From an uncultured Candidatus Saccharibacteria bacterium (GTDB taxonomy: Bacteria; Patescibacteriota; Andersenbacteria; UBA10190), in assembly GCA_964359735.1 (NCBI GenBank), contig CAYHTZ010000007.1, positions 1 to 48,484 of the forward strand: DNA of 48,484 nucleotides, read 5' to 3'. Below are positions 2,636 through 35,999 of this stretch, one piece after another (within the stretch, counting starts at the first letter, position 1; each line of letters starts with the position of its first letter). The notes beneath the pieces were generated by a model. That model worked only from the letters and a program-made list of their open reading frames with translations, searched no databases and had not been told where the DNA came from. The position numbers and the translations under genes are program-made.

Positions 2636-2972
2636 TTATGCTGCTAGCCCCTCCACCGCCATCGTTTGCGGTGCCTGTGGGGTTAGGGTGAAAGTCATAG
2701 AGAGTGCCTGCTGCTTTTCCGGCCGTATGATCAAATGGGATTCCCGATACGTTTCATAACCCGCCCGCGATACAATCGCCGCGTATACCCCTGGCGGAGG
2801 AAGGAGCACGAATTGACCCAGGCTCGTGGTTGCCTTCGTCCGTATACACTGTTCCCGAAATAGTGATGTGAGTCGCGCTGACTGGCTGGACAGGGAATAG
2901 TAAAAAAATCGCCCCGGCAAGAAGCCCGGCGCGCAGAAGAAAAGAAAAGCATTTTTGGCACTCTTTTTCCAT
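2636..2972 (-). pseudogene. Collapsed/frameshifted relic of a secreted surface protein (signal peptide fused to half of a carboxypeptidase-regulatory-like beta-sandwich)
   Basis: Frame 1 from ATG 2972: signal peptide (...LLFPVQPVSA) then THITISGTVYTDEG. Frame 2 from about 2830: TTSLGQFVLLPPPGVYAAIVSRAGYETY...TFTLTP to TAA 2636. The junction GAA GGC A ACC ACG has one extra A at 2830/2831. Confidence 0.6.
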
Positions 2973-2996
2973 AGGCTTTCCCTATACATCATGATA

Positions 2997-4040
2997 TCAG
3001 ATACGTGACGCGAGCTTATGCCCCAAACGCAGCATAGGTCTCTCATACCAGCGATATACGAGGAAAATAGCACTTCCGGTGATGACAGCCGTCATAAGCA
3101 GCGCTTTTGAGTAGCCCAGCGAAGGAAAGAAATGTTTCAGAACAATATCACCCACCGTGTCGTGCAGGAGATATATGGTATAGCTTGAATAGGCTAAGTA
3201 AGAAAAGAAACGGGGGACAAAGAGATGAGCATTGAGGAGTAAACCAATCAAAAAAAGAATGACTGCCCACCCGAAGGAAATCAGGTAGGAATTGTGAAGC
3301 GAAAGAAAACCTGTATGAATTTCGCGCAATCCTACTACAAGCACGAACAGGCATCCAGCCAGAAAAAGAAGAAAGTGAACTGGGTGCAACCGCTTGGTAT
3401 ACAATCCAAAGTAAAACAATTGACCGACAATTAAGTACGGCAGATATGCCACCGCCGCTGCCAGGAGAAAAAAGGAGTGGCCCAGGGAAGGGGAGAGAGC
3501 GATAATACCAAGCACAAAAGCCAGCTCCAACGTAACCAAAAGATCTGCCCGGCCGCGGAATGGATAAAGGCTTAGGAGTAATGCATAAAATAAAACTTCC
3601 ACCGCCAGTGTCCAAGCTACCTGAACAAAAGTGATTTGGGGGTAGAAAAAATAGTTTAATAAAAAGGCATTTGAGGCCACTGTCGAAACTGACACAGTAT
3701 TCCACGCCTCCGGCTGTAAGAGGATAGCGAGGAGTACTGCCAGCGCCAGTAACGGGTAAATCCGGAATACCCGCTTAATCAGAAATTCTTTTCGGCTCTC
3801 TCGCTGTGCTACATGGGTGATAATAAATCCACTGATTAAGAAAAAAAGGCACACTCCTAGCCAGCCGAAATCCTGGATAATACCTAAAGGATAATTAATC
3901 CACGCTCGCGCTTGTGACAACGCAGTTGGTGTAAAACCCAAACGGCTAGGAGCAAAGCCTATCCAATGGCTCCACACTACCAAGAGCGCCGCTGGCCCCC
4001 TCAGAATATCGAGGAAAGCAATAACCTGACTATTTCTCAC
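2997..4040 (-). CDS. Membrane O-acyltransferase, Acyl_transf_3 (OafA/WecH-like)
   Basis: FLDILRGPAALLVVWSH, GVCLFFLISGFII, FLIKRVFRIYP, WTLAVEVLFY, SYTIYLLH, YRWYERP; about 10 TM helices. Confidence 0.92.
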   Translation of the reverse strand: MRNSQVIAFLDILRGPAALLVVWSHWIGFAPSRLGFTPTALSQARAWINYPLGIIQDFGWLGVCLFFLISGFIITHVAQRESRKEFLIKRVFRIYPLLALAVLLAILLQPEAWNTVSVSTVASNAFLLNYFFYPQITFVQVAWTLAVEVLFYALLLSLYPFRGRADLLVTLELAFVLGIIALSPSLGHSFFLLAAAVAYLPYLIVGQLFYFGLYTKRLHPVHFLLFLAGCLFVLVVGLREIHTGFLSLHNSYLISFGWAVILFLIGLLLNAHLFVPRFFSYLAYSSYTIYLLHDTVGDIVLKHFFPSLGYSKALLMTAVITGSAIFLVYRWYERPMLRLGHKLASRI

Positions 4041-4775: not shown

Positions 4776-6728
4776 CTAATGAAGCTGCTCGAGTAGTCGC
4801 CTCGCCCCTTCACTGCGTGGTTCGCGCTCAAGCACGACCTCCGCTTGCTCTCGGGCCTTGTCATTCTCTCCGTTTGCCAAGTAGGCAACTGCCAAATTGA
4901 GCTTGGCATCGATGTATAAATCATCAGTGCCCACCGCCATTTCGAGGGGGGCTACGGCGTTTTCAGGTTGTCCTACCTTTAAGTACGCTACTCCCAGGTT
5001 GTTAAATGCATGAGTATATAAAGGTTCCAGCTCCGTGGCCTTTTTGAACAATTCCAGTGCGGTGTCATATTCCTCCTGCTGAGCTTTGAGCAAGCCTAAG
5101 TTATTATAAGCCTCAGCGTAGTTGGGGTTAAGGGAGATAGCTTCCCGAAACGTTCCCTCTGCCTGCTCTCCATCACCAATTCGCGTATAGGCAACCCCTA
5201 AATTATTCCACCCCCGAGCCTTTAAGGGCGATTTTTCAACAACATCGAGCCAAAGCCCCTGTTCACTTTGCCATGTTCCGTTTCGCGCTATTGTCGCGCC
5301 CGCAAAAATGACTACCACTGCCAGCCCCAGGGGTAGAAGAACTCGCCGGGGAAAGTAGACAGCTGCCACAGCAGACGCGGCCAGGAAAAACCCAAACGAT
5401 GGCAGATACAATCGGTGTTCATATATGACATCCCGAATGGGGATGAAGGAAGACTCCACTGAAAGGGCCAAAAAGAGGAAGAATATCCCGAATGACGCCA
5501 GCCGATTTCTTGGGTACAACCATGCTCCCAAACCCAGAATAGTGAGCAGTAAAACCAGCGACCCCAGCGTTCGCGCTTCCAGTAGAGAATGGGAAATCGG
5601 GTAATCGTAATCAAGGTTTTGATGTATAGGTAAAATCAAGAGCCGCAGATATGTCCGCACGACATTGATCTGAGTGAGTAAGTATTCACTGCGTGTAATG
5701 CTACTTGTTTCCGTAACAAGCGGCCGCCCGGGCTGAACTGCCGCATTTTCTACCAGAGGGTTATCCCTCTCCACCAGCGGCGGCCGATTTACCAAAAGTA
5801 TCAGAGGAATCACCAGAAGAAGTGATAAGTAAAGCAGAGCAACCCACCACATTACCTGCTCAGGTCGCGTCGAATCGCCCCGCGAGCGATTCGCGCTTTG
5901 GCTCAGCCAGCCACTGTCAAGTACTTGCCTTGACAACCCTTGCTGGCTCGGCTTCCGCAAGCCGTTCGCAGGTAACATGTCGGATTGCTCTGCAGCGTTA
6001 AGAGACGCGCCTGCCCCGCGAAGCTTTAGCGAAGTGGGGTGCTTGGAATGAAAAGGGGCGGGCGAAGGTGAGCCTTGAAAGAAAAACCACTCGATCATGA
6101 GGATCGCTATGGGCGCCGTGAACGCGATTTCCTTACTAAACATGGCCAAGAGAATCGCCAGCCAAGATAATAGATAGAGCCAATTCCAGCTGCTTACCCT
6201 GCCTGTCCGCCGAAGCTTTAGCGAAGGTGGGAGCCCTGTCGAAAGGCCTCTCTTCCTGGCTAAGACGTACAGTAAAAGCCCGGTGAGATAGAGAAGTGCG
6301 GTGAGGGAAGCCAGTCGCTGGATAATGTAGGTAACCGCTTGAGTTTGAACCGGGTGGCTTATAAAAAGTAAGGCAGTTGCGCCAGCGATTATGTGTGCCT
6401 GCTCCTTATACCTCGTTCTTGCACCGAGCTCCCTTACCAAGAAAAAAATTACGGTTGCCGACAGCAGGTGGGTAAGAATATTCACCGCGTGGTAGCTCAC
6501 AGTATTCTCACCGCTCAAAGCGTAGTTAGCTGCCAGTGTCAAGTACGGAATTATTCGAGTGGGGTATCGTTGTACGAGCGCAACCATGTCAAAGTCTCGC
6601 AAGGGAGCATTTCCGACAATTTCTACCAAGTCATCGAACACAAACGGTGAGGAAAGTGTGTTGGAGTAGGCAACTATGCCGACAATCCAAATAAGCAGCA
6701 GCCAGAACCAGCCTGATTTCCAATTCAT
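4776..6728 (-). CDS. TMTC-like GT-C fold membrane glycosyltransferase with C-terminal TPR repeats
   Basis: PFVFDD, SYHAVNILTH, HPVQTQAVTYIIQR, LAMFSKE, YEHRLYLPS, RNGTWQSEQGLW, then TPRs (NNLGVAY, EAYNNLG, AFNNLG). Contains two in-frame insertions. Confidence 0.85.
   Translation of the reverse strand: MNWKSGWFWLLLIWIVGIVAYSNTLSSPFVFDDLVEIVGNAPLRDFDMVALVQRYPTRIIPYLTLAANYALSGENTVSYHAVNILTHLLSATVIFFLVRELGARTRYKEQAHIIAGATALLFISHPVQTQAVTYIIQRLASLTALLYLTGLLLYVLARKRGLSTGLPPSLKLRRTGRVSSWNWLYLLSWLAILLAMFSKEIAFTAPIAILMIEWFFFQGSPSPAPFHSKHPTSLKLRGAGASLNAAEQSDMLPANGLRKPSQQGLSRQVLDSGWLSQSANRSRGDSTRPEQVMWWVALLYLSLLLVIPLILLVNRPPLVERDNPLVENAAVQPGRPLVTETSSITRSEYLLTQINVVRTYLRLLILPIHQNLDYDYPISHSLLEARTLGSLVLLLTILGLGAWLYPRNRLASFGIFFLFLALSVESSFIPIRDVIYEHRLYLPSFGFFLAASAVAAVYFPRRVLLPLGLAVVVIFAGATIARNGTWQSEQGLWLDVVEKSPLKARGWNNLGVAYTRIGDGEQAEGTFREAISLNPNYAEAYNNLGLLKAQQEEYDTALELFKKATELEPLYTHAFNNLGVAYLKVGQPENAVAPLEMAVGTDDLYIDAKLNLAVAYLANGENDKAREQAEVVLEREPRSEGARRLLEQLH
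5866..6009. other. 144-nt highly structured in-frame insertion bounded by a 6-bp inverted repeat
   Basis: CGCGTC (5866-71) and GACGCG (6004-09) enclose hairpins GAATCGC/GCGATTC (5872-92), AGCCAGC..TGTCAAG/CTTGACA..GCTGGCT (5905-48) and CGGCTT/AAGCCG (5949-64). Length is a multiple of 3. Confidence 0.55.
6010..6040 (+). repeat. CYTGCC-hairpin element (family A), in frame in the TMTC-like gene
   Basis: CCTGCCCCGCGAAGCTTTAGCGAAGTGGGGT; 30/31 identical to the reverse complement of 33407-33437. Confidence 0.9.
6198..6232 (+). repeat. CYTGCC-hairpin element (family A), in frame in the TMTC-like gene
   Basis: CCTGCCTGTCCGCCGAAGCTTTAGCGAAGGTGGGA; the gene reads it as PPSLKLRRTG. Confidence 0.88.
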
Positions 6729-21438: not shown

Positions 21439-21957
21439 ATGGCAAATGATACTCCTTCCGGCAGCACAGTTTCCGCTCCAGGCAGGCGCGGCCGCCGCGG
21501 CATGGGGCTTCTTTTGCTGGTCGTAGTCTTAATTGCCATTGGCTTATTTATTTGGGCCGAGCAACAGCGGCGTACCGTTTCCAGCAAGCTTGAGCAAACG
21601 GAAGCCGAATTGGAAGAAATCCGTAAATCCACCCAGCGGGGTGGGGAAGAAGTAGCGAAAGAAGTGTTGACGAAAGTGCGTTCTCACATGATAGTGCCTG
21701 AAGAGCCGCAACCTACTGTCGCCACTATTATTGACATCAACCGTCTCAAGGAGGCTAGCGAATTCTACGCGGTAGCCGATAATGGCGATCACTTAATCAT
21801 TACCGAAAAGCGCGCCATTCTTTACGACCCTGACCGCGACATTATTCTCGATGTGGTCCCCGTTCGGATTAACAAGACCTCAGCGAGTCCCGGAGTTTCG
21901 CCAGGTCGTACTAGCCCATCACCGACTTCAACACCTTCTCCGACTCCAACGAAATAA
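21439..21957 (+). CDS. Single-TM membrane-anchored protein of unknown function
   Basis: N-terminal TM, coiled coil, PTVATIIDINRL...DNGDHLII...AILYDP...ILDVVPV, PT-rich tail. I recall this pattern from CPR hypothetical proteins but have not verified it. Confidence 0.8.
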   Translation: MANDTPSGSTVSAPGRRGRRGMGLLLLVVVLIAIGLFIWAEQQRRTVSSKLEQTEAELEEIRKSTQRGGEEVAKEVLTKVRSHMIVPEEPQPTVATIIDINRLKEASEFYAVADNGDHLIITEKRAILYDPDRDIILDVVPVRINKTSASPGVSPGRTSPSPTSTPSPTPTK

Positions 21958-21961
21958 ATCT

Positions 21962-23500
21962 GTGCCTGCGCGGATAGAGACAGCTGCACTGAAGGGGATT
22001 GAAGCCACTTCGGTGGAAGTTGAGGTTGATGTATTACCCGGCCTACCCAGCTTTACCGTCGTTGGCCTAACCGATAAAGCTATTCAAGAATCACGGGAAC
22101 GGTTAACCGCAGCGCTTTCATTTCTGGGCTACGAGCCACCCCGCCGCAAAACCATTGTCTCTCTCGCACCAGCGAGTCTCAAGAAAGAAGGTTCAATGTA
22201 CGATCTACCCATTACGCTCGGCTTCCTTGTTGCCAGTCGACAATTGAAAGGGCTTGCCCCGAGCGCAGTCGAGGGGTGGTTCGCGGGCGAACTCGGCCTC
22301 GACGGCGCGCTGCGCGCCGTGCGCGGTGTTCTTCCCATTACCTTGGCCGCCGTAAAATCCGGCATCAAATCACTGTATATTCCCGCGGGCAATGAACCTG
22401 AAGCCGCTGTCTTTGCTGATCAAATCGAAATCTTGGCCGTCCACTCTTTACAAGAATTAGTCGACCACCTCACGAAAAAACATGAGATCAAACCGAGCAA
22501 ACTTCATAAAGTAAATGTTGCGGATGTTCCCCCGGAAGTCGATTTCGCTGATATCAAAGGGCAGGATTACGCTAAGCGCGCGCTTACCATTGCCGCCGCT
22601 GGCCACCACCATGTCTTAATGGCCGGCCCACCGGGTGCGGGGAAAACTCTTCTGGCTCGGGCGATGGCAGGGATTTTGCCACCCATGACACGCGAAGAAC
22701 AGTATGTTGTCTCTTCCTTATATTCTGTCGCTGGGCTTTTGCCGGATAACCACGGCTTGGTGCAACATCGCCCGGTGCGCTCACCTCACCATGGCGCCAG
22801 CAGTGTCGCGCTTGTCGGCGGGGGAACGAACCCGCGTCCGGGGGAAGTGAGCCTGGCTCACCACGGGGTTTTATTTCTCGACGAGCTTCCCGAATTTCCA
22901 CGGCAAACGCTGGATCAGTTGCGTCAACCTATCGAAGACGGTTTTGTCACCGTTTCCCGCGCCGCGCAAACGATCCGCTACCCCGCGCGCTCGATGGTCA
23001 TCGGCGCCATGAACCCATGTAAATGCGGCTATCTTGGCAGCGACACCCGCGAGTGCCGCTGCACGCCGGGGGACGTCACCCGCTATCAACGCAAATTGTC
23101 AGGTCCCTTCCTCGATCGCTTTGATCTGCACGTGATGGTCCGTGATGTGCCGTTAGAAGAACTGCTCGATGAAAGCCACTCGAGCGGCACGCCTTCAGCA
23201 ACACTGCGCGAGAAAGTAACTGCTGCGCGGGAGCGCCAACTCGCGCGACAAGGGAAACCTAACAGCGAACTTTCCGCCCGGGAACTCAAAAAACACTGTG
23301 CTATCGACGCCCGCTCGAAATCCCTCCTTTCCGCCGCTGAGCGCCGCTTCCACATTTCCTCCCGCGGTGTGCACCGCATCCTCAAAGTTGCCCGCACCAT
23401 TGCCGACTTGGCCGGCGAGGATTCCATCTCCGCCGCTCACGTGGCTGAGGCTTTGCAATACCGCGAACAACTCCAACAAGCCATACCCACATTTGTTTAG
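21962..23500 (+). CDS. comM: YifB/ComM Mg-chelatase-like AAA+ helicase
   Basis: VEVEVDVLPGLPSFTVVGL, KEGSMYDLPI, GELGLDG, GPPGAGKT, PGEVSLAHHGVLFLDELPEF, AMNPCKCGY, LSGPFLDRFD, ARTIADL. Start set to GTG 21962. Confidence 0.95.
   Translation: MPARIETAALKGIEATSVEVEVDVLPGLPSFTVVGLTDKAIQESRERLTAALSFLGYEPPRRKTIVSLAPASLKKEGSMYDLPITLGFLVASRQLKGLAPSAVEGWFAGELGLDGALRAVRGVLPITLAAVKSGIKSLYIPAGNEPEAAVFADQIEILAVHSLQELVDHLTKKHEIKPSKLHKVNVADVPPEVDFADIKGQDYAKRALTIAAAGHHHVLMAGPPGAGKTLLARAMAGILPPMTREEQYVVSSLYSVAGLLPDNHGLVQHRPVRSPHHGASSVALVGGGTNPRPGEVSLAHHGVLFLDELPEFPRQTLDQLRQPIEDGFVTVSRAAQTIRYPARSMVIGAMNPCKCGYLGSDTRECRCTPGDVTRYQRKLSGPFLDRFDLHVMVRDVPLEELLDESHSSGTPSATLREKVTAARERQLARQGKPNSELSARELKKHCAIDARSKSLLSAAERRFHISSRGVHRILKVARTIADLAGEDSISAAHVAEALQYREQLQQAIPTFV
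22253..22276 (+). repeat. Short CYTGCC-hairpin element, in frame in comM
   Basis: CTTGCCCCGAGCGCAGTCGAGGGG (LAPSAVEG); CCCC/GGGG stem with GA/GA tandem. Confidence 0.6.
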
Positions 23501-30656: not shown

Positions 30657-31829
30657 ATGATCAATACCATTCTCAACAAATTACAATCGCGCTGGCAGGG
30701 GCCACCCATTACGGTGGAAATAAAGGGCAAATCCTACCAGCTAGGGCAGGGAACTCCCAAGACCCGGCTGATCATCAAGAACCCAAGCGTATTGCCCCGT
30801 TTCCTCTTTAGCACCTCCCTTGCTTTCGGCGAAGCCTACATGAATGGTGGTATAGAAGTTCAAGGCGATCTCTTGGATATTCTTGAAGGTTATCATTCCT
30901 CCCGCGTCGCGTTCCCACCGTTGGCGCGTCCAATGAGTAACACGGTAGGCAACCTTCCTATCTCCGTGAAACGCGCCGCCAAGAACGCCCAACACCATTA
31001 CGACATCGGCAACGATTTTTACAAATTGTGGCTAGGCAAAGAACGGGTTTACTCTTGTGCCTACTTCTTGAATAAAAAAGATGACATTGATACTGCCCAA
31101 GAACAAAAGCTCGAACTCGTTTGTCGCAAAGCCCGCTTACAACCTGGTCATACCTTACTTGATATTGGTTGCGGTTGGGGAGGTCTTATGTTTCATGCCG
31201 TGAGAAGCTACGGTGTGCATGCGACTGGTATAACCCCTGCCAACGAACAAGCCAATTTTATTGAAGCCAAAGCGAAGGAAGAAGGTCTCCAAAACAAAAT
31301 CAATGTCATTCGCGACGATTGGCGCTCCTTGAAAGGAAAATACGACAGAGTGGTTAGCATTGGCATGTTCGAGCATGTAGGGAAGCGCCAATACTCCGCC
31401 TTCATTAAAAAGTGGCGCGAGCTTTTACAAGAAGACGGCGTCTCGCTGCTGCACACCATCGGTCGCATGTCGCCCTCTGGTTCCGACCCCTGGGTCACAA
31501 AGTATATTTTCCCCGGCGGGTATTTGCCCACGCTTTCTCACATGACAGACCCTATCGCCAAGCACGATATGCTGGTCGCTGACATCGAAAATCTCTGGCA
31601 GCACTACGATTTAACACTCCAGCATTGGCTGAAGAATTTTGAAGAACATGTCCCTGAAATCACGAAGATGTTCGATGAAAAGTTTGTCCGCATGTGGCGC
31701 CTGTACCTGGCCGGCTCAATCAGTATGTTCCGTTGGGGTAGCATCCATCTCTGGCAAGCCGTGATTTTACCTTCCAAAAAATCCCCCTGGCCGTTAAATA
31801 GGGAAGTAAATGCCGCGCAGCGATCTTAA
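30657..31829 (+). CDS. cfa: Cyclopropane-fatty-acyl-phospholipid synthase family methyltransferase
   Basis: LAFGEAYMNG, HHYDIGNDFYKLWL, YSCAYF, LLDIGCGWGG, SIGMFEHVG, KYIFPGGYLP, RMWRLYL. Start set to ATG 30657 because the track start lies inside the tRNA. Confidence 0.93.
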   Translation: MINTILNKLQSRWQGPPITVEIKGKSYQLGQGTPKTRLIIKNPSVLPRFLFSTSLAFGEAYMNGGIEVQGDLLDILEGYHSSRVAFPPLARPMSNTVGNLPISVKRAAKNAQHHYDIGNDFYKLWLGKERVYSCAYFLNKKDDIDTAQEQKLELVCRKARLQPGHTLLDIGCGWGGLMFHAVRSYGVHATGITPANEQANFIEAKAKEEGLQNKINVIRDDWRSLKGKYDRVVSIGMFEHVGKRQYSAFIKKWRELLQEDGVSLLHTIGRMSPSGSDPWVTKYIFPGGYLPTLSHMTDPIAKHDMLVADIENLWQHYDLTLQHWLKNFEEHVPEITKMFDEKFVRMWRLYLAGSISMFRWGSIHLWQAVILPSKKSPWPLNREVNAAQRS

Positions 31830-34029
31830 ACTTTCTTCCCTGATCACCGAGGTACCCAGAGTTGGGCCGGCGAAGGCGAAGTTCCTGAAGAAACTGGGCA
31901 TTACGCACGTGCGGGATATACTCTACACCTTCCCGCGCCGGTATGACGACTTCTCCCGCGTGACGCCGATTGCGGAGCTCAAGGTTGGTGAGAAAATGAC
32001 GGTCAAAGGCAAAGTGAAAAAAGTTGAAAGCAAGTGGGGCTTCTACGGCCGCCGGCGTCTCTTGCGCATTTTCGTCGATGTTGAAGACGACACGGGGGTG
32101 CTTCACATTACCTGGTTCAACTTACGTTTCCTCCCCAAGCAGTTACCAGTGGAAAGGGAAATTCTCGTGGCGGGGGAGGTAGAAGAATATAGACCTCATC
32201 CGCCTCGCCACGAGTCGGCTTCTCCTTCTCAAGGAGAAGCACCTCTCCTTACGAAGGAGAGGTCGGCGAACGGGCCGGGTGAGGTGCATTTCCGCATGCG
32301 CTCTCCCGTACTGGAGTATGTTCACCCTGAGGAAGAGGGAGGACCGACCCACACCGCGCGCATCACGCCTGTTTACCCTGAAACGTATGGGGTGACCTCA
32401 CGCTTTATTCGCTACCAAGTGAAAAGTCTCCTACCGCTCATCCAAGCTCTTCCCGAGTATATTCCGGCAGAAATCCTGGAGCGGCATCATTTGCCAGGTA
32501 TTCGCGAAGCTATTCGCGCCACTCATTTCCCTGAAAACCAAGAAGAGCTTGAACCTGCCCAGCGGCGTCTCAGATTCGACGAATTATTTTTCCTGCAACT
32601 CGCCGCGCTTGTCCGCCGCCGTCTCATTCAACAAGAGCCTGCTTATCCGATACCCATTGAAAAACTCTCCATAGATCGATTTATGGAGAGGTTGCCATTC
32701 AAACTTACCAATGCACAGCAGGGAGCCCTCAAGGAAATTCTGGCTGATCTCAAAAAACCTGTGCCTATGAATCGCTTATTACAAGGCGACGTCGGCTCGG
32801 GCAAGAGCGCCTTGGCGCTCATTGCCACCCAAGTCGTGGTTGCGGCCGGCTATAAGGCTCTGTACCTCGCCCCTACCGAAATCCTTGCCCGCCAGCAAGC
32901 GGAGGTTTTTTCAAAAGCTTTGCTCCCCCTTACGAAGGGGGAGTCCCGAGGCAACCGAGGGGAAGGGGTCGAACTGCTCATCGGTGCCCTACCACCCTCC
33001 GAAAAACAGCGCATCAAAAAGCGTCTTTTGAGTGAGGAATCCCTTTGTGTGGTTGGCACTCATGCGCTTCTCCAAGAAGACGTCCATACGCATCGCGTGG
33101 CGCTCGCCATTGTCGACGAGCAGCACCGCTTTGGCGTTGAACAGAGGAAAGCGTTACAACACGCCAACGAAGGGGAAGTCCCGCACTTACTCTCTATGAC
33201 AGCCACACCTATCCCGCGTACGCTGAATCTTACTGTCTACGGCGATTTGGATGTTTCTGTCTTAAACGAGCTCCCCGCCGGCCGAAAACCGATTCAAACT
33301 AGGATTGTTGCTCCGGAAAACCGCGATGAGGCCGCAATCCACACCCTCGAGCAGCTTCACGCTGGCCGCCAAGCCTATGTGATTGCACCGCGAATAGCGG
33401 AATCAGACCCCACTTCGCTGAAGCTTCGCGGGGCAGGAAAACTAGAAGTAAAATCTGCTACTCAAACATTTGAAGAAATGAAGCATCTTTTCCCCGGTAT
33501 TGCGGTGGGGTTGGTGCACGGGCAAATGAAGTCGGAGGAAAAAGAACGTGTCATGCGGCATTTCGGTGCGGGCGCTATCCAGCTCCTCGTCTCAACTGCC
33601 GTAGTAGAAGTCGGCGTGAATGTTCCCAACGCCACTGTCATGATCATTGAAGGCGCCGAGCGCTTTGGCTTGGCTCAGCTGCACCAGCTGCGGGGGAGGG
33701 TAGGCAGAGCCGAGCACCAATCGTATTGCTACCTTTTCCCGACTACAAACGAAGCTGCCGAAGGTGAGCGTTTGCAAATTCTCGAACGAACTACTGATGG
33801 TTTCGTCATTGCTGAGAAAGATCTAGAGCTGCGCGGCCCGGGGGAAATCTACGGTGTGCAACAGTCCGGCTTCAGCGACCTCAAAGTTGCCTCACTCTTA
33901 GATTACGCCACTATCAAAATCGCCCGCGAAGAAGCCGAACGTATTCTTACAAAAGATCCTGATCTCAGAAATCATGACATTCTAAGAAGGAAAGTGGAAC
34001 AAAAGAATGTCCAAACACACTTCGAATAG
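31810..34029 (+). CDS. recG: ATP-dependent DNA helicase RecG with three in-frame palindromic insertions
   Basis: FPRRYDD, LLQGDVGSGKS, APTEILARQ, VDEQHRFGV, MTATPIPRTL, VHGQMK, EVGVNVPNA, RFGLAQLHQLRGRVGR, DLELRGPG. Confidence 0.97.
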   Translation: MPRSDLKLSSLITEVPRVGPAKAKFLKKLGITHVRDILYTFPRRYDDFSRVTPIAELKVGEKMTVKGKVKKVESKWGFYGRRRLLRIFVDVEDDTGVLHITWFNLRFLPKQLPVEREILVAGEVEEYRPHPPRHESASPSQGEAPLLTKERSANGPGEVHFRMRSPVLEYVHPEEEGGPTHTARITPVYPETYGVTSRFIRYQVKSLLPLIQALPEYIPAEILERHHLPGIREAIRATHFPENQEELEPAQRRLRFDELFFLQLAALVRRRLIQQEPAYPIPIEKLSIDRFMERLPFKLTNAQQGALKEILADLKKPVPMNRLLQGDVGSGKSALALIATQVVVAAGYKALYLAPTEILARQQAEVFSKALLPLTKGESRGNRGEGVELLIGALPPSEKQRIKKRLLSEESLCVVGTHALLQEDVHTHRVALAIVDEQHRFGVEQRKALQHANEGEVPHLLSMTATPIPRTLNLTVYGDLDVSVLNELPAGRKPIQTRIVAPENRDEAAIHTLEQLHAGRQAYVIAPRIAESDPTSLKLRGAGKLEVKSATQTFEEMKHLFPGIAVGLVHGQMKSEEKERVMRHFGAGAIQLLVSTAVVEVGVNVPNATVMIIEGAERFGLAQLHQLRGRVGRAEHQSYCYLFPTTNEAAEGERLQILERTTDGFVIAEKDLELRGPGEIYGVQQSGFSDLKVASLLDYATIKIAREEAERILTKDPDLRNHDILRRKVEQKNVQTHFE
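32218..32263. repeat. Two adjacent perfect hairpins (family B), in frame in recG
   Basis: GCTTCTCCTT-ctc-AAGGAGAAGC and ACCTCTCCTT-acg-AAGGAGAGGT. Confidence 0.85.
32923..32963. repeat. Family B hairpin pair, in frame in recG
   Basis: CTCCCCCTT-acg-AAGGGGGAG followed by TCCC-GA-GG-caa-CC-GA-GGGGA; shares CCTT-ACG-AAGG with 32241-63. Confidence 0.85.
33407..33437 (-). repeat. CYTGCC-hairpin element (family A), in frame in recG
   Basis: Plus strand ACCCCACTTCGCTGAAGCTTCGCGGGGCAGG, read as PTSLKLRGAG, the same peptide as in the TMTC-like protein. Confidence 0.92.
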
Positions 34030-34104
34030 CTAAGGCCTGCCCCGTACCGAACTTGTTCTGGTGCTGGGGTCGAGCAGAAAAATTTACAGACCCATTTTGA
34101 GTAG
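34030..34104 (+). pseudogene. Orphan, synonymously diverged second copy of the recG C-terminus carrying its own hairpin insert
   Basis: CTA AGG [33-nt CCTGCCCCGTACCGAACTTGTTCTGGTGCTGGG] GTC GAG CAG AAA AAT TTA CAG ACC CAT TTT GAG TAG = LR..VEQKNLQTHFE*, versus recG LRRKVEQKNVQTHFE*. Confidence 0.85.
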
Positions 34105-34608
34105 GTAGTATCGCCAGGGCAGCTTCGCGTGCTCACCGGCGTAGGGAATACCGATGCGGGGAGATGTTTTGGTATTTTGCTTCGATACCCGAAATCCGTC
34201 ATCTGCTAGATACAGCCGCTTGCTCGTTATTAGATCCTCGCCGTTGAGTTTGCGTGTGATGTGCATTGCCCGTGTTAATTTTCCCGGCCCGTTCCATTTG
34301 CCTGCCGCTCGCACCAGCACGGCCGCTGGGAATTCTTTTTTGTCTGTCACAATGTTGAGCATGTTGTACATACCGTAAATGAAATACACGTACGCGTGTC
34401 CCGCTTCGCCGTACATCACTGCATTGCGCTGCGTTTTTCCAAACCGTGCGTGGCTGGCGAGATCATCTTCACCTATGTACGCTTCTGTTTCCATGATACG
34501 TGCCATTATCTTCTGACCACGATAGTTGCGCACTAACAGCTTGCCGAGCAATTCCTTCGCAACCACATGTGTGTCGCGCGCAAAAAATGAACGTGGTAAT
34601 CTTTTCAT
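34084..34608 (-). CDS. mpg: DNA-3-methyladenine glycosylase (MPG/AAG family)
   Basis: LPRSFFAR, VAKELLGK, IMETEAY, ASHA, YVYFIYGMY, NGPGKL, PRIGI, PWRYY. Confidence 0.93.
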   Translation of the reverse strand: MKRLPRSFFARDTHVVAKELLGKLLVRNYRGQKIMARIMETEAYIGEDDLASHARFGKTQRNAVMYGEAGHAYVYFIYGMYNMLNIVTDKKEFPAAVLVRAAGKWNGPGKLTRAMHITRKLNGEDLITSKRLYLADDGFRVSKQNTKTSPRIGIPYAGEHAKLPWRYYLLKMGL

Positions 34609-35148
34609 ATGAGTCAGCTGGTGCAGATTATTCTAGAAACAATTTGGCTCCTTTTACCAGCGGGCGTGGCCAACACCGCCCCAGTGTTCGCAGCCCGGTA
34701 TAGCTGGCTGCCTGCTCTCTCCACCCCCATCCACGCTCCTCTTTTAGGCACACATAAAACGGTTCGCGGTCTTATTGTTGGCACAGTTTTTGGCTCTGTT
34801 ACGGGTATGATTCAGTTCGGTGTCCAGGCGTTTCCAGCGATAAAGGACATTTCACTCCTTCCGCTTACGACTCTGGTTCTTGCCGTTCTCTTCGGGGGGC
34901 TCTTAGGCTTCGGTGCGCTGCTCGCGGATACTGCGAAAAGTTTTTTTAAACGCCGGTTACGCATTGATCCTGGAAAAAGTTTGCCCATTGTCGACCAAGT
35001 TGATTCCACCATCGGTGCTCTTGTGGTCGCGTGGTTCTTTGTTCCCTTAACACTGGCACACATTGTCACCGCCATAATTCTTTTTGGACCAATTTCATTT
35101 CTGGTGAGTTACGTTGGAGTGAAATTGAAAATAAAGTCATCATTGTAA
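34609..35148 (+). CDS. carS: CDP-archaeol synthase (CarS/DUF46) family cytidylyltransferase
   Basis: LPAGVANTAP, GTHKTVRG, DTAKSFFKRRL, PG, DQVD; multiple TMs. Confidence 0.85.
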   Translation: MSQLVQIILETIWLLLPAGVANTAPVFAARYSWLPALSTPIHAPLLGTHKTVRGLIVGTVFGSVTGMIQFGVQAFPAIKDISLLPLTTLVLAVLFGGLLGFGALLADTAKSFFKRRLRIDPGKSLPIVDQVDSTIGALVVAWFFVPLTLAHIVTAIILFGPISFLVSYVGVKLKIKSSL

Positions 35149-35174
35149 GGGTGTGTATAACTCGCGCAAAAACA

Positions 35175-35204
35175 TTGCGCACAAATATTTATTTTCTGTA
35201 CAAT
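35175..35204 (+). promoter_or_regulatory. Candidate sigma70 promoter for the basic sORF
   Basis: TTGCGC-N18-TACAAT; SD GGAGGT at 35223-35228, 7 nt before ATG 35236. Confidence 0.55.
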
Positions 35205-35235
35205 GGTAATATGAACTCGGAGGGAGGTGAGTAGT

Positions 35236-35334
35236 ATGCCAAAGCGTCGCAAGAAAGTTGCGAAGAAGCGAAAGACTGCTCGCCGAAAGAAAGGTGGCAA
35301 GAAAAAGAAATCTTCTCGCCGCAAGCGAAGATAA
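35236..35334 (+). CDS. 32-aa protamine/histone-H1-like ultra-basic protein
   Basis: MPKRRKKVAKKRKTARRKKGGKKKKSSRRKRR*; 22/32 K+R, no acidic residues; strong SD, promoter and terminator. Below the ORF-track length cutoff. Confidence 0.8.
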   Translation: MPKRRKKVAKKRKTARRKKGGKKKKSSRRKRR

Positions 35335-35347
35335 CGTTATTCGCAAC

Positions 35348-35379
35348 AAAAATCTCACTCACCCGAGTGAGATTTTTTT
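35348..35379. terminator. Bidirectional intrinsic terminator
   Basis: AAAAATCTCACTC-accc-GAGTGAGATTTTTTT between convergent genes. Confidence 0.9.
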
Positions 35380-35381
35380 GT

Positions 35382-35999
35382 TCAAACCAGCAATTGTTCT
35401 AAGTGCAAGTGAAACTTTTCTACTAGCTGCTGTGTGAGTTTGTTCTCTCGCAGCTGCTCTACAACGCCATTTACCTCCTCTGCGCTGCTCTGAGACAGGC
35501 CTATATCTAAAGATAGCTGCTGGCGTGAAGCCGCATCAGGCCGCCGCTTAAAGTAGCGCTGCAAGGTGTCGTGCCAGCGCTGTATTCCTTCGCGCGAGCT
35601 CACGTAGTATAGCTCCTCCTCGTAGATGGCAGAGAGCGAGCGCTGCACCAGATTCCAATCAGCAAAGAGATCATAGATGAGCTCGTCCTCGAGCAGCTTG
35701 ACCGCGTGGGGGACAAAGGGGTGCCAGGGGAGAGATTCTTTCATGTTCGCCTCCTGCCAAAATTTCTCGCGCGTAGCATCAATCCAGGCATGTACGCGCA
35801 TACCCGTGTCGAAATCATTTTTACCGACCAGCGAAGTAAGTCCCACGTTCTGCGGGTGAGTGCGGTGGCGGCTGATTAAACCCAGATGACGGATATCAGG
35901 AAATAGCGTGCCTGCCCAGTACCGGGAGTCAGAGACCTTACCCTCCAGGTGTTTGAGTAGCCGCGCCGCATATACGACATGCGCCACCTCCCCGGCCAT
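35382..35999 (-). CDS. Putative metal-dependent hydrolase (Zn-dependent phospholipase C-like)
   Basis: MAGEVAH, GTLFPDIRH, RTH, GMRVHAWID spacing. Start set to ATG 35999. Confidence 0.65.
   Translation of the reverse strand: MAGEVAHVVYAARLLKHLEGKVSDSRYWAGTLFPDIRHLGLISRHRTHPQNVGLTSLVGKNDFDTGMRVHAWIDATREKFWQEANMKESLPWHPFVPHAVKLLEDELIYDLFADWNLVQRSLSAIYEEELYYVSSREGIQRWHDTLQRYFKRRPDAASRQQLSLDIGLSQSSAEEVNGVVEQLRENKLTQQLVEKFHLHLEQLLV

Follow-up and report, generated by a model that had tools for sequence, protein, structure and literature searches.

Here we describe a bacterial gene that is followed by a second, recoded version of its own end. In the 48,484-nucleotide stretch of DNA analysed here (contig CAYHTZ010000007.1 of assembly GCA_964359735.1, referred to below as the window), the gene recG is followed directly by a small hairpin insert and a silently different copy of its last codons. 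We favour the explanation that two diverged recG alleles were joined illegitimately and out of register, in an event linked to the hairpin, and we give this a probability of roughly 0.55. The copy now in use would, on the same reading, have diverged to silent saturation in another, related lineage before it was joined at 34029/34030. The genome under study (G000, 1.12 Mb in 41 contigs) belongs to an ultra-small groundwater bacterium, whose relatives are annotated as Candidatus Andersenbacteria in the candidate phyla radiation (CPR)/Patescibacteria. In what follows, G and L numbers denote comparison genomes and fetched loci and C numbers denote contigs.

The functional recG gene is an open reading frame (ORF) of 739 amino acids (31810..34029, forward strand) with the Pfam domains RecG_wedge, DEAD, Helicase_C and RecG_dom3_C. 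It uses and ends in copy 1, the new copy (33982..34029, forward strand), which consists of the last 15 codons and a TAG stop, is contiguous with the body of the gene and is uninterrupted. The codons are CTA AGA AGG AAA GTG GAA CAA AAG AAT GTC CAA ACA CAC TTC GAA TAG, and the peptide, LRRKVEQKNVQTHFE*, is the same as in the relatives L185, L233 and L234. The six nucleotides CTAAGG (34030..34035, forward strand) directly adjoin this stop; they may be the Leu-Arg pair of codons with which the displaced copy opened, or else they belong to the hairpin element as its flank on the 5′ side. The homologous place in L235 has TTAAGGAGGAAGGTCGAG; L188 has CTAAC directly after its recG stop, and relatives with a spacer behind recG have CTAA there.

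Next comes the hairpin itself, 33 nucleotides of the repeat type that we call B (CCTGCCCCGTACCGAACTTGTTCTGGTGCTGGG, 34036..34068, forward strand), which folds imperfectly and is open in frame as PAPYRTCSGAG. It is followed by copy 2, the old copy (34069..34104, forward strand), which encodes VEQKNLQTHFE* and is no longer joined to recG. Its codons are GTC GAG CAG AAA AAT TTA CAG ACC CAT TTT GAG TAG. Copy 2 lies in the recG frame, with no further stop between the two TAGs, and no in-frame start codon upstream of it was found in the sequence of the locus. The units are arranged head to tail, with 48 nucleotides from CTA to TAG and then CTA again, and 39 nucleotides separate the copies. Both units open with CTAAG, at 33982 and at 34030. 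From Val to Glu there are 11 sense codons: nine are silently changed, AAT is the same in both copies and the remaining one exchanges Val for Leu; this amounts to 11 differences in 36 nucleotides. The initial annotation of this DNA had reported a recoded second recG tail behind a hairpin insert, the shared CTAAG and the nine silent codon differences, and the sequence, the ORFs and our codon comparison bear it out on all three.

Could such an arrangement arise by chance? We scanned the 300 nucleotides downstream of each of 4358 ORF ends in the genome for duplicates of the preceding tail, and set each tail against the downstream DNA of another gene as a control. A peptide match of 10 out of 11 is found at recG only, the runner-up has 8 out of 11, and the controls almost never reach 8. 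When 11 substitutions are placed at random, the peptide is kept to within one residue in none of 200,000 trials. Because the match is unique among the ORF ends and random substitution never reproduced it, the duplicate is far beyond chance. The only other tail-like match of the downstream scan is a tandem repeat within an ORF (C2:84000-85000), with a period of 270 nucleotides and units that are up to 100% identical.

Nor is the junction an artefact of joining two strains in assembly. The genome is derived from a metagenome, and the independent contigs that cover the junction have a low coverage (2.4-3x), which would be the grounds for suspecting a two-strain chimera. However, two independent assemblies in ENA, made from other samples of the same groundwater site, contain the same junction: L183 matches the window from 32992-35632 with one mismatch in 2641 nucleotides, and L184 matches 33980-34851 at 100%, with 0 mismatches in 872 nucleotides. 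A comparable structure is also present in G004, a genome from another genus that is described below. Because of this recurrence we regard the junction as real DNA, and an assembly chimera as next to impossible.

The silent differences between the copies indicate how long they have been apart. Genus-level pairs of relatives are saturated at silent sites: where residues are identical, the same codon is used at a frequency of 0.33-0.52 (recG, mpg, CarS and cyclopropane synthase). Copies 1 and 2 use the same codon at just one of ten identical residues. Copy 2 nevertheless retains the consensus peptide of the family and its stop, and in simulations of substitutions such an intact copy, if it were unselected DNA, is compatible only with a drift of less than ~0.15 substitutions per site. 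Saturated silent sites and an intact copy 2 imply that the copies parted long before copy 2 was stranded. Neutral drift in place cannot account for their differences, so that one copy must stem from another lineage or have been under selection elsewhere. The initial annotation had proposed that selection acted on the two while they diverged, each as the functional tail of a different genome, and we think that this holds. Its reading was to fall if both tails proved equally close to the same relatives. The two tails do score alike against 26 tails of relatives (means of 25.3 of 36 nucleotides for copy 1 and 25.6 for copy 2), in a comparison that has no power and neither supports nor refutes the proposal, because all the relatives are saturated at silent sites.

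Which of the two copies is native to the locus? The evidence comes from the neighbouring gene mpg (34084..34608, reverse strand), which encodes a 3-methyladenine DNA glycosylase (Pfam Pur_DNA_glyco, 1.4e-54) and is convergent with recG. The closest relatives obtained share 81-85% amino acid identity with G000 in recG and 76-80% in mpg. In L185, L187, L189 and L234 a single recG tail overlaps mpg by 13 nucleotides and is followed by TAGTATCGCC; in L188, L233 and L235 the single tail is set off from mpg by a short spacer. In G000 it is copy 2 that holds the place beside GTAGTATCGCC, the counterpart of TAGTATCGCC in the relatives. Because copy 2 sits where the single tail of the closest relatives overlaps mpg, it is the native end, that is, the positional orthologue of the native recG 3′ end. 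The extra material comprises copy 1 with its TAG, the hairpin and CTAAGG.

The tail of L235 (TTA AGG AGG AAG GTC GAG CAG AAA AAT TTA CAG ACA CAT TTT GAA TAA) is identical to copy 2 at 33 of 36 nucleotides, a match with a single-test P of ~0.02 that is non-significant after ~10 comparisons. L235 is not close to G000 in either recG or mpg. Its sequence suggests that the old copy was built as CTAAGG, then the hairpin in place of AGGAAG (six nucleotides, two codons), then GTCGAG onward.

The overlap of the second copy with the stop region of mpg, also pointed out in the initial annotation, measures 21 nucleotides. The last six codons and the stop of mpg (LLKMGL*) are the antisense of copy 2, and the mpg stop TAA is the reverse complement of TTA, the Leu codon that is the only non-silent codon of copy 2. 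This C-terminus (34084-34108) is specific to the lineage: relatives end in ...WRYYYSK* and G000 in ...YYLLKMGL*. The change consists of one extra G after the stop of copy 2 (34105; GTAGGTAG) together with a T>C by which the former stop is lost. These alterations of mpg postdate the duplication event.

The recG-mpg junction is variable in other members of the family too, although the convergent order of the two genes is conserved across it. Two genus-level relatives have lost mpg. In L233 it is reduced, with its two ends kept around an internal deletion and ~213 nucleotides left (5753-5965). In L232 (2346-2397) mpg is deleted, and recG is followed by 52 AT-rich nucleotides and then CarS. In L186 a 203-amino-acid ORF with no Pfam match lies between recG and mpg and overlaps the end of mpg (2929-3540, in recG orientation), and in G006 (L009) a ribbon-helix-helix-like gene lies downstream of recG, between recG and mpg. 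In two unrelated lineages, L235 (3424-3460) and L012, the spacer is filled by a heptamer-like repeat (CATTGGT/TTGGTCA) that is translated as the C-terminus of mpg (…PMPNDQ*, …MTNDQFPMTND*). The recG of L012 (G023:C81) is apparently truncated to ...KKYPNAF*, with the normal end NILTHFE* in another frame; a deletion within the tail, between two repeats of AAAAATATCCT, could account for this. On the far side of mpg, the gene (reverse strand) and a CarS-like gene (forward strand) start back to back at 34608/34609 with 0 intergenic bases, and likewise in L185, L186 and L189, so that both promoters must lie within the neighbouring coding sequence. With whole genes inserted there in other lineages, the recG-mpg junction is a hot spot of insertion.

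The 33-nucleotide insert belongs to a family of dispersed hairpin repeats, which the initial annotation had overlooked. A 91-nucleotide segment that includes the hairpin folds no more stably than shuffled sequences (z = 0.04), and the reality of the hairpin rests on its membership of the repeat family and not on folding energy. The core of type B recurs behind the 5S rRNA gene at C13:29649 (23 of 24 nucleotides identical), and further relatives are found at C9:26449, in G004:C42 and in G030:C5, one of them in the genome of another family. There are ~4 type B copies in all. The genome contains the head of type B (GCCTGCCCC) 34 times, where 12.5 occurrences would be expected. A search of the 33-nucleotide hairpin against Rfam gave no match, a strict type B pattern retrieved only the query, and a scan for intrinsic terminators does not call the hairpin, which has no T run after it.

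The copy at C9:26449 is preceded by ATAGTTAAGG. Beyond the stem, the type B copies at C9:26415-26460 (reverse strand) and at 34026-34069 of the window have the 5′ flank ATAGYTAAGG in common. On C9 this flank is intergenic, 38 nucleotides past the stop of a pilin-like gene, and at recG its TAG is the stop codon. The common flank may be a target motif, or may have been copied along with the hairpin.

A sister family, type A (CCCCGCGAAGCTTTAGCGAAGTGGGG), is more abundant. Of its 23 copies, the majority lie within long ORFs and keep the frame open, at least 12 of them in ORFs of 290-1006 amino acids, and most lack a duplicated flank. One type A copy is inside recG (CCCCGCGAAGCTTCAGCGAAGTGGGG, 33409..33438, reverse strand), as an in-frame insert translated as PTSLKLRGAG (residues 534-543), and another is in a gene for a TPR protein at 4776-6728 of the window. 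Compared with L186, the recG of G000 has three in-frame inserts: 28 amino acids at 32203-32286 (PRHESASPSQGEAPLLTKERSANGPGEV), ~15 amino acids at 32923-32967 (LPLTKGESRGNRGEG) and the type A hairpin. The first insert is found in G000 and L232, and the type A element in G000, L185 and L233; the latter is absent from L186 and L232, and L186 has neither. All four combinations thus occur among the relatives, which suggests recombination within recG, or repeated gain and loss. The tail of the gene is treated differently. It is uninterrupted and of constant length in all 120 of the 120 best recG homologues, every one of which ends at HFE, and none of these 120 is a working allele with a hairpin in its tail. 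In G000 the hairpin in the old tail is open in frame, yet lies outside the translated recG.

A further question is whether the arrangement is a one-off accident. We searched the genome for nearby duplicates that agree in peptide and have a low nucleotide identity. Besides ordinary protein repeats, the scan gave one other case at a gene end, the start of polA (C2:59066). Here the order is MAKTPKLALID, an in-frame type A hairpin (PTSLKLRGAG), AHAI, and then a clean start (MARNPKLALIDAHALIH) joined to the 908-amino-acid gene. The codons of the old start are ATG GCC AAA ACC CCC AAA CTC GCC TTG ATC GAC, the two starts are 67% identical in nucleotides, and the duplication is absent from the 34 other genomes of the family. 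The recG and polA cases have a common anatomy: the hairpin is in the displaced copy, a clean recoded copy is on the body of the gene, and the joint is a few codons away from the hairpin. As a side observation, the old polA start, the hairpin and AHAI (C2:59066-59190) make up a stub ORF of 28 amino acids that overlaps the new start by 11 nucleotides, and no Shine-Dalgarno sequence is visible at the new start; translation of Pol I may therefore depend on coupling to the stub.

A second recG case is found in G004. Its recG ends in ...VERKNVQAHFE*, followed by 81 nucleotides with two hairpins and then VEQKNLTAHFE*. The second of these hairpins abuts the same Val codon as the hairpin in G000. The hairpins of the two genomes are unlike, as are their first tails, which agree at 27 of 36 nucleotides. 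In G003 a decayed second recG tail lies beside the mpg stop and has 10 identical nucleotides in common with the first tail. Pattern scans for double tails, which covered 35 genomes of the family and 42 of the class, found them only in G000 and G004. Broad fetches of recG loci from metagenome and genome collections returned mostly distant recG sequences and no further double tails, and the background for recoded duplicates is low (two weak matches in 0.9 Mb of other fetched loci). Because the layout recurs at polA in G000 and at recG in another genus, the event is tied to hairpins and is no one-off accident, a second point that the initial annotation had missed.

Two smaller observations concern the same genomes. 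In G003 (L238; G003:C94:2866-3030) a tRNA-Thr(CGT) gene is followed by a hairpin that is 83% identical to the hairpin in the recG spacer of G004, and then by a fragment that resembles the T-arm and the 3′ strand of the acceptor of a tRNA, i.e. a layout of gene, hairpin and displaced end. In G004 (L010; G004:C15), 100 nucleotides past the second tail, a perfect 14-nucleotide inverted repeat (AAGAAATCCGAAAC ... GTTTCGGATTTCTT) surrounds ~60 nucleotides. It lies between the displaced tail and the mpg stop and is probably a further small insertion at this junction.

How might the recG locus have come about? In the explanation we favour, DNA from a related lineage would have been taken up and paired by homology with the body of recG. 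The resident allele would have had the tail that overlaps mpg, by now bearing the hairpin, and the incoming allele a clean tail. Strand exchange would then have stalled at the short, diverged, hairpin-interrupted end, and the free end would have been joined illegitimately, possibly at the CTAAG microhomology. The hairpin interrupts the old copy six nucleotides from the proposed joint. The product would be a scar of homology-facilitated illegitimate recombination (HFIR), and it may have been favoured because it restored an uninterrupted RecG tail of the invariant length. The sequences themselves show the anatomy of the locus, the positional orthology of copy 2, silent saturation beside an intact copy, the place of the hairpin in a repeat family and the recurrence of the layout; we infer the direction of transfer, the route of uptake and the roles of the hairpin and the microhomology. 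We favour the recG side as the imported one, a choice that is not settled, because the displaced copy of polA keeps the gene's own upstream region. Copy 2 survives, on this reading, thanks to the youth of the event and to the 21 nucleotides at its end, which now encode the C-terminus and stop of mpg.

Several observations are in line with this account. The genome has genes for DNA uptake, namely ComEC (PF03772, 2.6e-45), DprA (PF02481, 1.2e-73) and a ComM-like gene at 21851-23500 of the window. In-frame inserts of recG occur among the relatives in all four combinations, a four-gamete pattern that suggests recombination among these lineages, and the tail, uninterrupted in the 120 best homologues, does not tolerate insertions. 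Transformable bacteria are documented to undergo HFIR, and strand exchange by RecA is halted where it meets a short block of heterology (PMC6382021). An end of 36 nucleotides that is ~30% diverged and contains 33 nucleotides of heterology would be a likely stopping place for exchange. Illegitimate joints of HFIR lie at microhomologies of 3-10 bp, and the CTAAG at 33982 and 34030 may be such a microhomology. The initial annotation had proposed a scar of xenologous replacement that stranded the old C-terminus, resembling HFIR, and had pointed to comM in the window. The stranded copy and the uptake genes stand and the mechanism is a reasonable one; a donor and a breakpoint were not found.

That said, a number of results weigh against this explanation. 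A sliding-window scan of silent divergence along recG, made with relatives that are too distant for the purpose, shows no breakpoint; codon identity peaks only where inserted elements are shared, and these peaks are unusable as breakpoints. No donor or near-identical source of copy 1 turned up among the relatives; the best tail matches at 30 of 36 nucleotides, no more than one expects of relatives saturated at silent sites. The joint coincides precisely with the stop of copy 1, whereas a random illegitimate join usually brings some of the donor flank. In both G000 and G004 a hairpin adjoins one and the same codon of the old copy, which two independent accidents do not predict. The flank ATAGYTAAGG is common to the C9 hairpin, and the stop and CTAAGG may therefore belong to the element. 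Lastly, the two cases in G000 (recG and polA) have 3 of 21 codons in common, against 8.2 expected under the codon usage of the genome (P ~0.01). Such a deficit needs an extra filter, e.g. that only dissimilar repeats survive; few codons may be common because similar copies would be deleted.

An alternative, kept alive by the position of the joint, the shared codon and the shared flank, turns the hairpin from an obstacle into the cause. Insertion of the element would bring about the duplication, e.g. through a break at its target. The break would then be repaired from a hairpin-bearing copy in another lineage, which co-converts the end of the gene, much as described for the mobile ORFs of fungal mitochondria, or the element would itself carry or template the spare end. 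The hairpin repeats of these CPR genomes would be part of a self-rescuing insertion process: by landing in the conserved end of an essential gene, or being copied into it, an element would bring with it a silently different spare copy, either co-converted from another lineage or templated, that keeps the gene intact, and recG, the recG of G004 and polA would be footprints of one undescribed mechanism. In its favour, a hairpin of the family lies within or next to the displaced copy in each of the three intact cases, G000 and G004 have a hairpin directly against the same Val codon, and the type B copy on C9 has the same flank, including the TAG that serves as the recG stop. Furthermore, a hairpin of the G004 type in G003 lies between tRNA-Thr and a fragment of a tRNA 3′ end, and the copies differ more than random codon choice predicts. 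However, the locus has no gene for an enzyme and just 39 nucleotides between the copies, no shared cassette is visible between G000 and G004 (their hairpins and first tails are unlike), and most of the 23 type A copies lack a duplicated flank. We know of no mechanism that writes silent changes. We hold both the insertion-driven duplication and its self-rescuing form to be possible, at odds that are clearly low.

A reversed direction of transfer would have the body of recG and copy 1 as the residents. In this case the side of mpg would be imported together with a donor recG tail (copy 2 and the hairpin). Homology in mpg or CarS would have anchored this piece, and its other end would have been joined behind the resident stop by an illegitimate event. 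The anatomy is symmetrical in this respect, as the body is contiguous with copy 1 and copy 2 with mpg. Re-acquisition is conceivable, given that mpg is dispensable or variable in the genus (deleted in L232, a pseudogene in L233). We nevertheless think this direction unlikely: the convergent order is ancestral across the family, the mpg of G000 is no more foreign than its neighbours (76-80% amino acid identity, with the same relatives as recG), and at polA the upstream region of the gene is still attached to the displaced copy, as would better suit an old copy that is resident. The initial annotation had offered, as a second option, that mpg brought the donor recG tail with it; this is disfavoured, and arrival of mpg by transfer was rejected as the leading explanation, since the family inherited this gene order from its ancestor and mpg was lost rather than gained in some relatives.

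Two further explanations need no second genome. A tandem duplication in place of the last 16 codons would uncouple the ends of recG and mpg, and would have to be followed by fast silent divergence and the later arrival of the hairpin. The exact head-to-tail spacing of the units fits this, copy 2 looks ancestral (33 of 36 nucleotides to L235, 29 of 36 to L185), almost all silent sites of copy 1 are changed, as though the two had been pushed away from each other, and the partial second tail of G003 has its 10 nucleotides in common with the first. That said, copy 2 should have decayed over the time in which copy 1 gained nine silent changes, and silent change would have to run at least 7 times faster than neutral; a simple slippage duplication needs a high nucleotide identity, and the copies agree at 25 of 36 nucleotides and one of ten codons. 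The chance landing of a hairpin in a relic of 26-45 nucleotides, in two cases out of two, is itself very unlikely, and we consider the whole scenario quite improbable. The other possibility, also raised in the initial annotation, is a functional double C-terminus, with copy 2 translated, by readthrough of the TAG or ribosome bypass, and under selection. The frame of copy 2 and the open stretch between the two TAGs in G000 would permit it, and the second copies of G000 and G004 differ mostly silently. Against it, no suppressor tRNA is present among the 44 tRNAs, TAG ends 291 of 907 long ORFs, the G004 spacer has an in-frame TAG, TAA and TGA, and the 120 best homologues all stop at HFE. We find no support for readthrough and regard a double C-terminus as very improbable indeed.

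It is useful to compare the locus with systems that are better known. HFIR has been described for bacteria capable of natural transformation (de Vries & Wackernagel 2002; Prudhomme 2002; Meier & Wackernagel 2003; summarised in PMC6382021). As in HFIR, one side of the recG joint is contiguous with the homologous body of the gene, and the other appears to be out of register, possibly with a microhomology of five nucleotides. Uptake genes are present in G000, and the hairpin with the diverged 36-nucleotide end would be expected to block RecA strand exchange. Unlike in HFIR, the piece gained would be an allele of the same gene end and not foreign cargo, no donor was found among the relatives, the joint coincides with a stop codon and the scars recur with a hairpin of a repeat family.

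Mobile elements offer a second set of parallels. Phages and integrative and conjugative elements insert at the 3′ end of genes and restore the gene through their att sites. The recG locus likewise has a replacement end on the gene and the old end displaced to the far side. What would one expect of an end replacement borne by an element? The duplicated end does flank the insert: the gene uses the copy before it, and the one behind it is displaced. However, there is no ORF in the 39 nucleotides of this "element" and hence no insert-encoded integrase or endonuclease, no integrase at the locus and no identical core repeat beyond CTAAG. In fungal mitochondria, partial duplications of atp6 and cob lie beside mobile endonuclease ORFs (PMC6279837). 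There, as here, the gene keeps a complete end and a diverged partial copy lies just downstream of the insert; the fungal insert is an endonuclease gene of hundreds of bases, whereas the recG insert has 39 nucleotides, no ORF and a place on a bacterial chromosome. Allomyces atp6 is a further example of a C-terminal duplication beside a mobile ORF.

With respect to the hairpins, the closest likeness is to the Rickettsia palindromic elements and other intragenic miniature inverted-repeat transposable elements, small palindromic repeats that are often in frame in genes (PMC10969869). The hairpins of G000 are also dispersed, present in many copies and in frame in genes (type A in recG, polA, the TPR protein and others). 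The Rickettsia elements measure ~150 bp, against 26-33 nucleotides here, and are not reported with a recoded spare gene end. The literature that we searched contains no account, for bacteria, of such tiny hairpin repeats tied to spare gene ends that have diverged silently. By analogy, the locus would work like an HFIR scar or a "C-terminal displacement".

For the curators of genomes and gene annotations, displaced gene ends are a trap, both for gene callers and for filters that remove assembly chimeras. Silently diverged and displaced ends can also serve as markers of recent exchange between lineages. The duplicated recG end is real; it looks like a scar of recombination that can be dated, in a lineage without cultured members, and it belongs to a recurring pattern that is linked to hairpins. 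This link to elements of 26-33 nucleotides suggests that they shape where joins happen: the hairpins might block strand exchange, make an interrupted end worth replacing, or drive the event themselves. If our explanation is true, ultra-small groundwater bacteria repair or overwrite the ends of their genes with DNA from relatives that are saturated at silent sites, and this would be direct evidence of recombination far beyond the usual limit of a species in an uncultured group.

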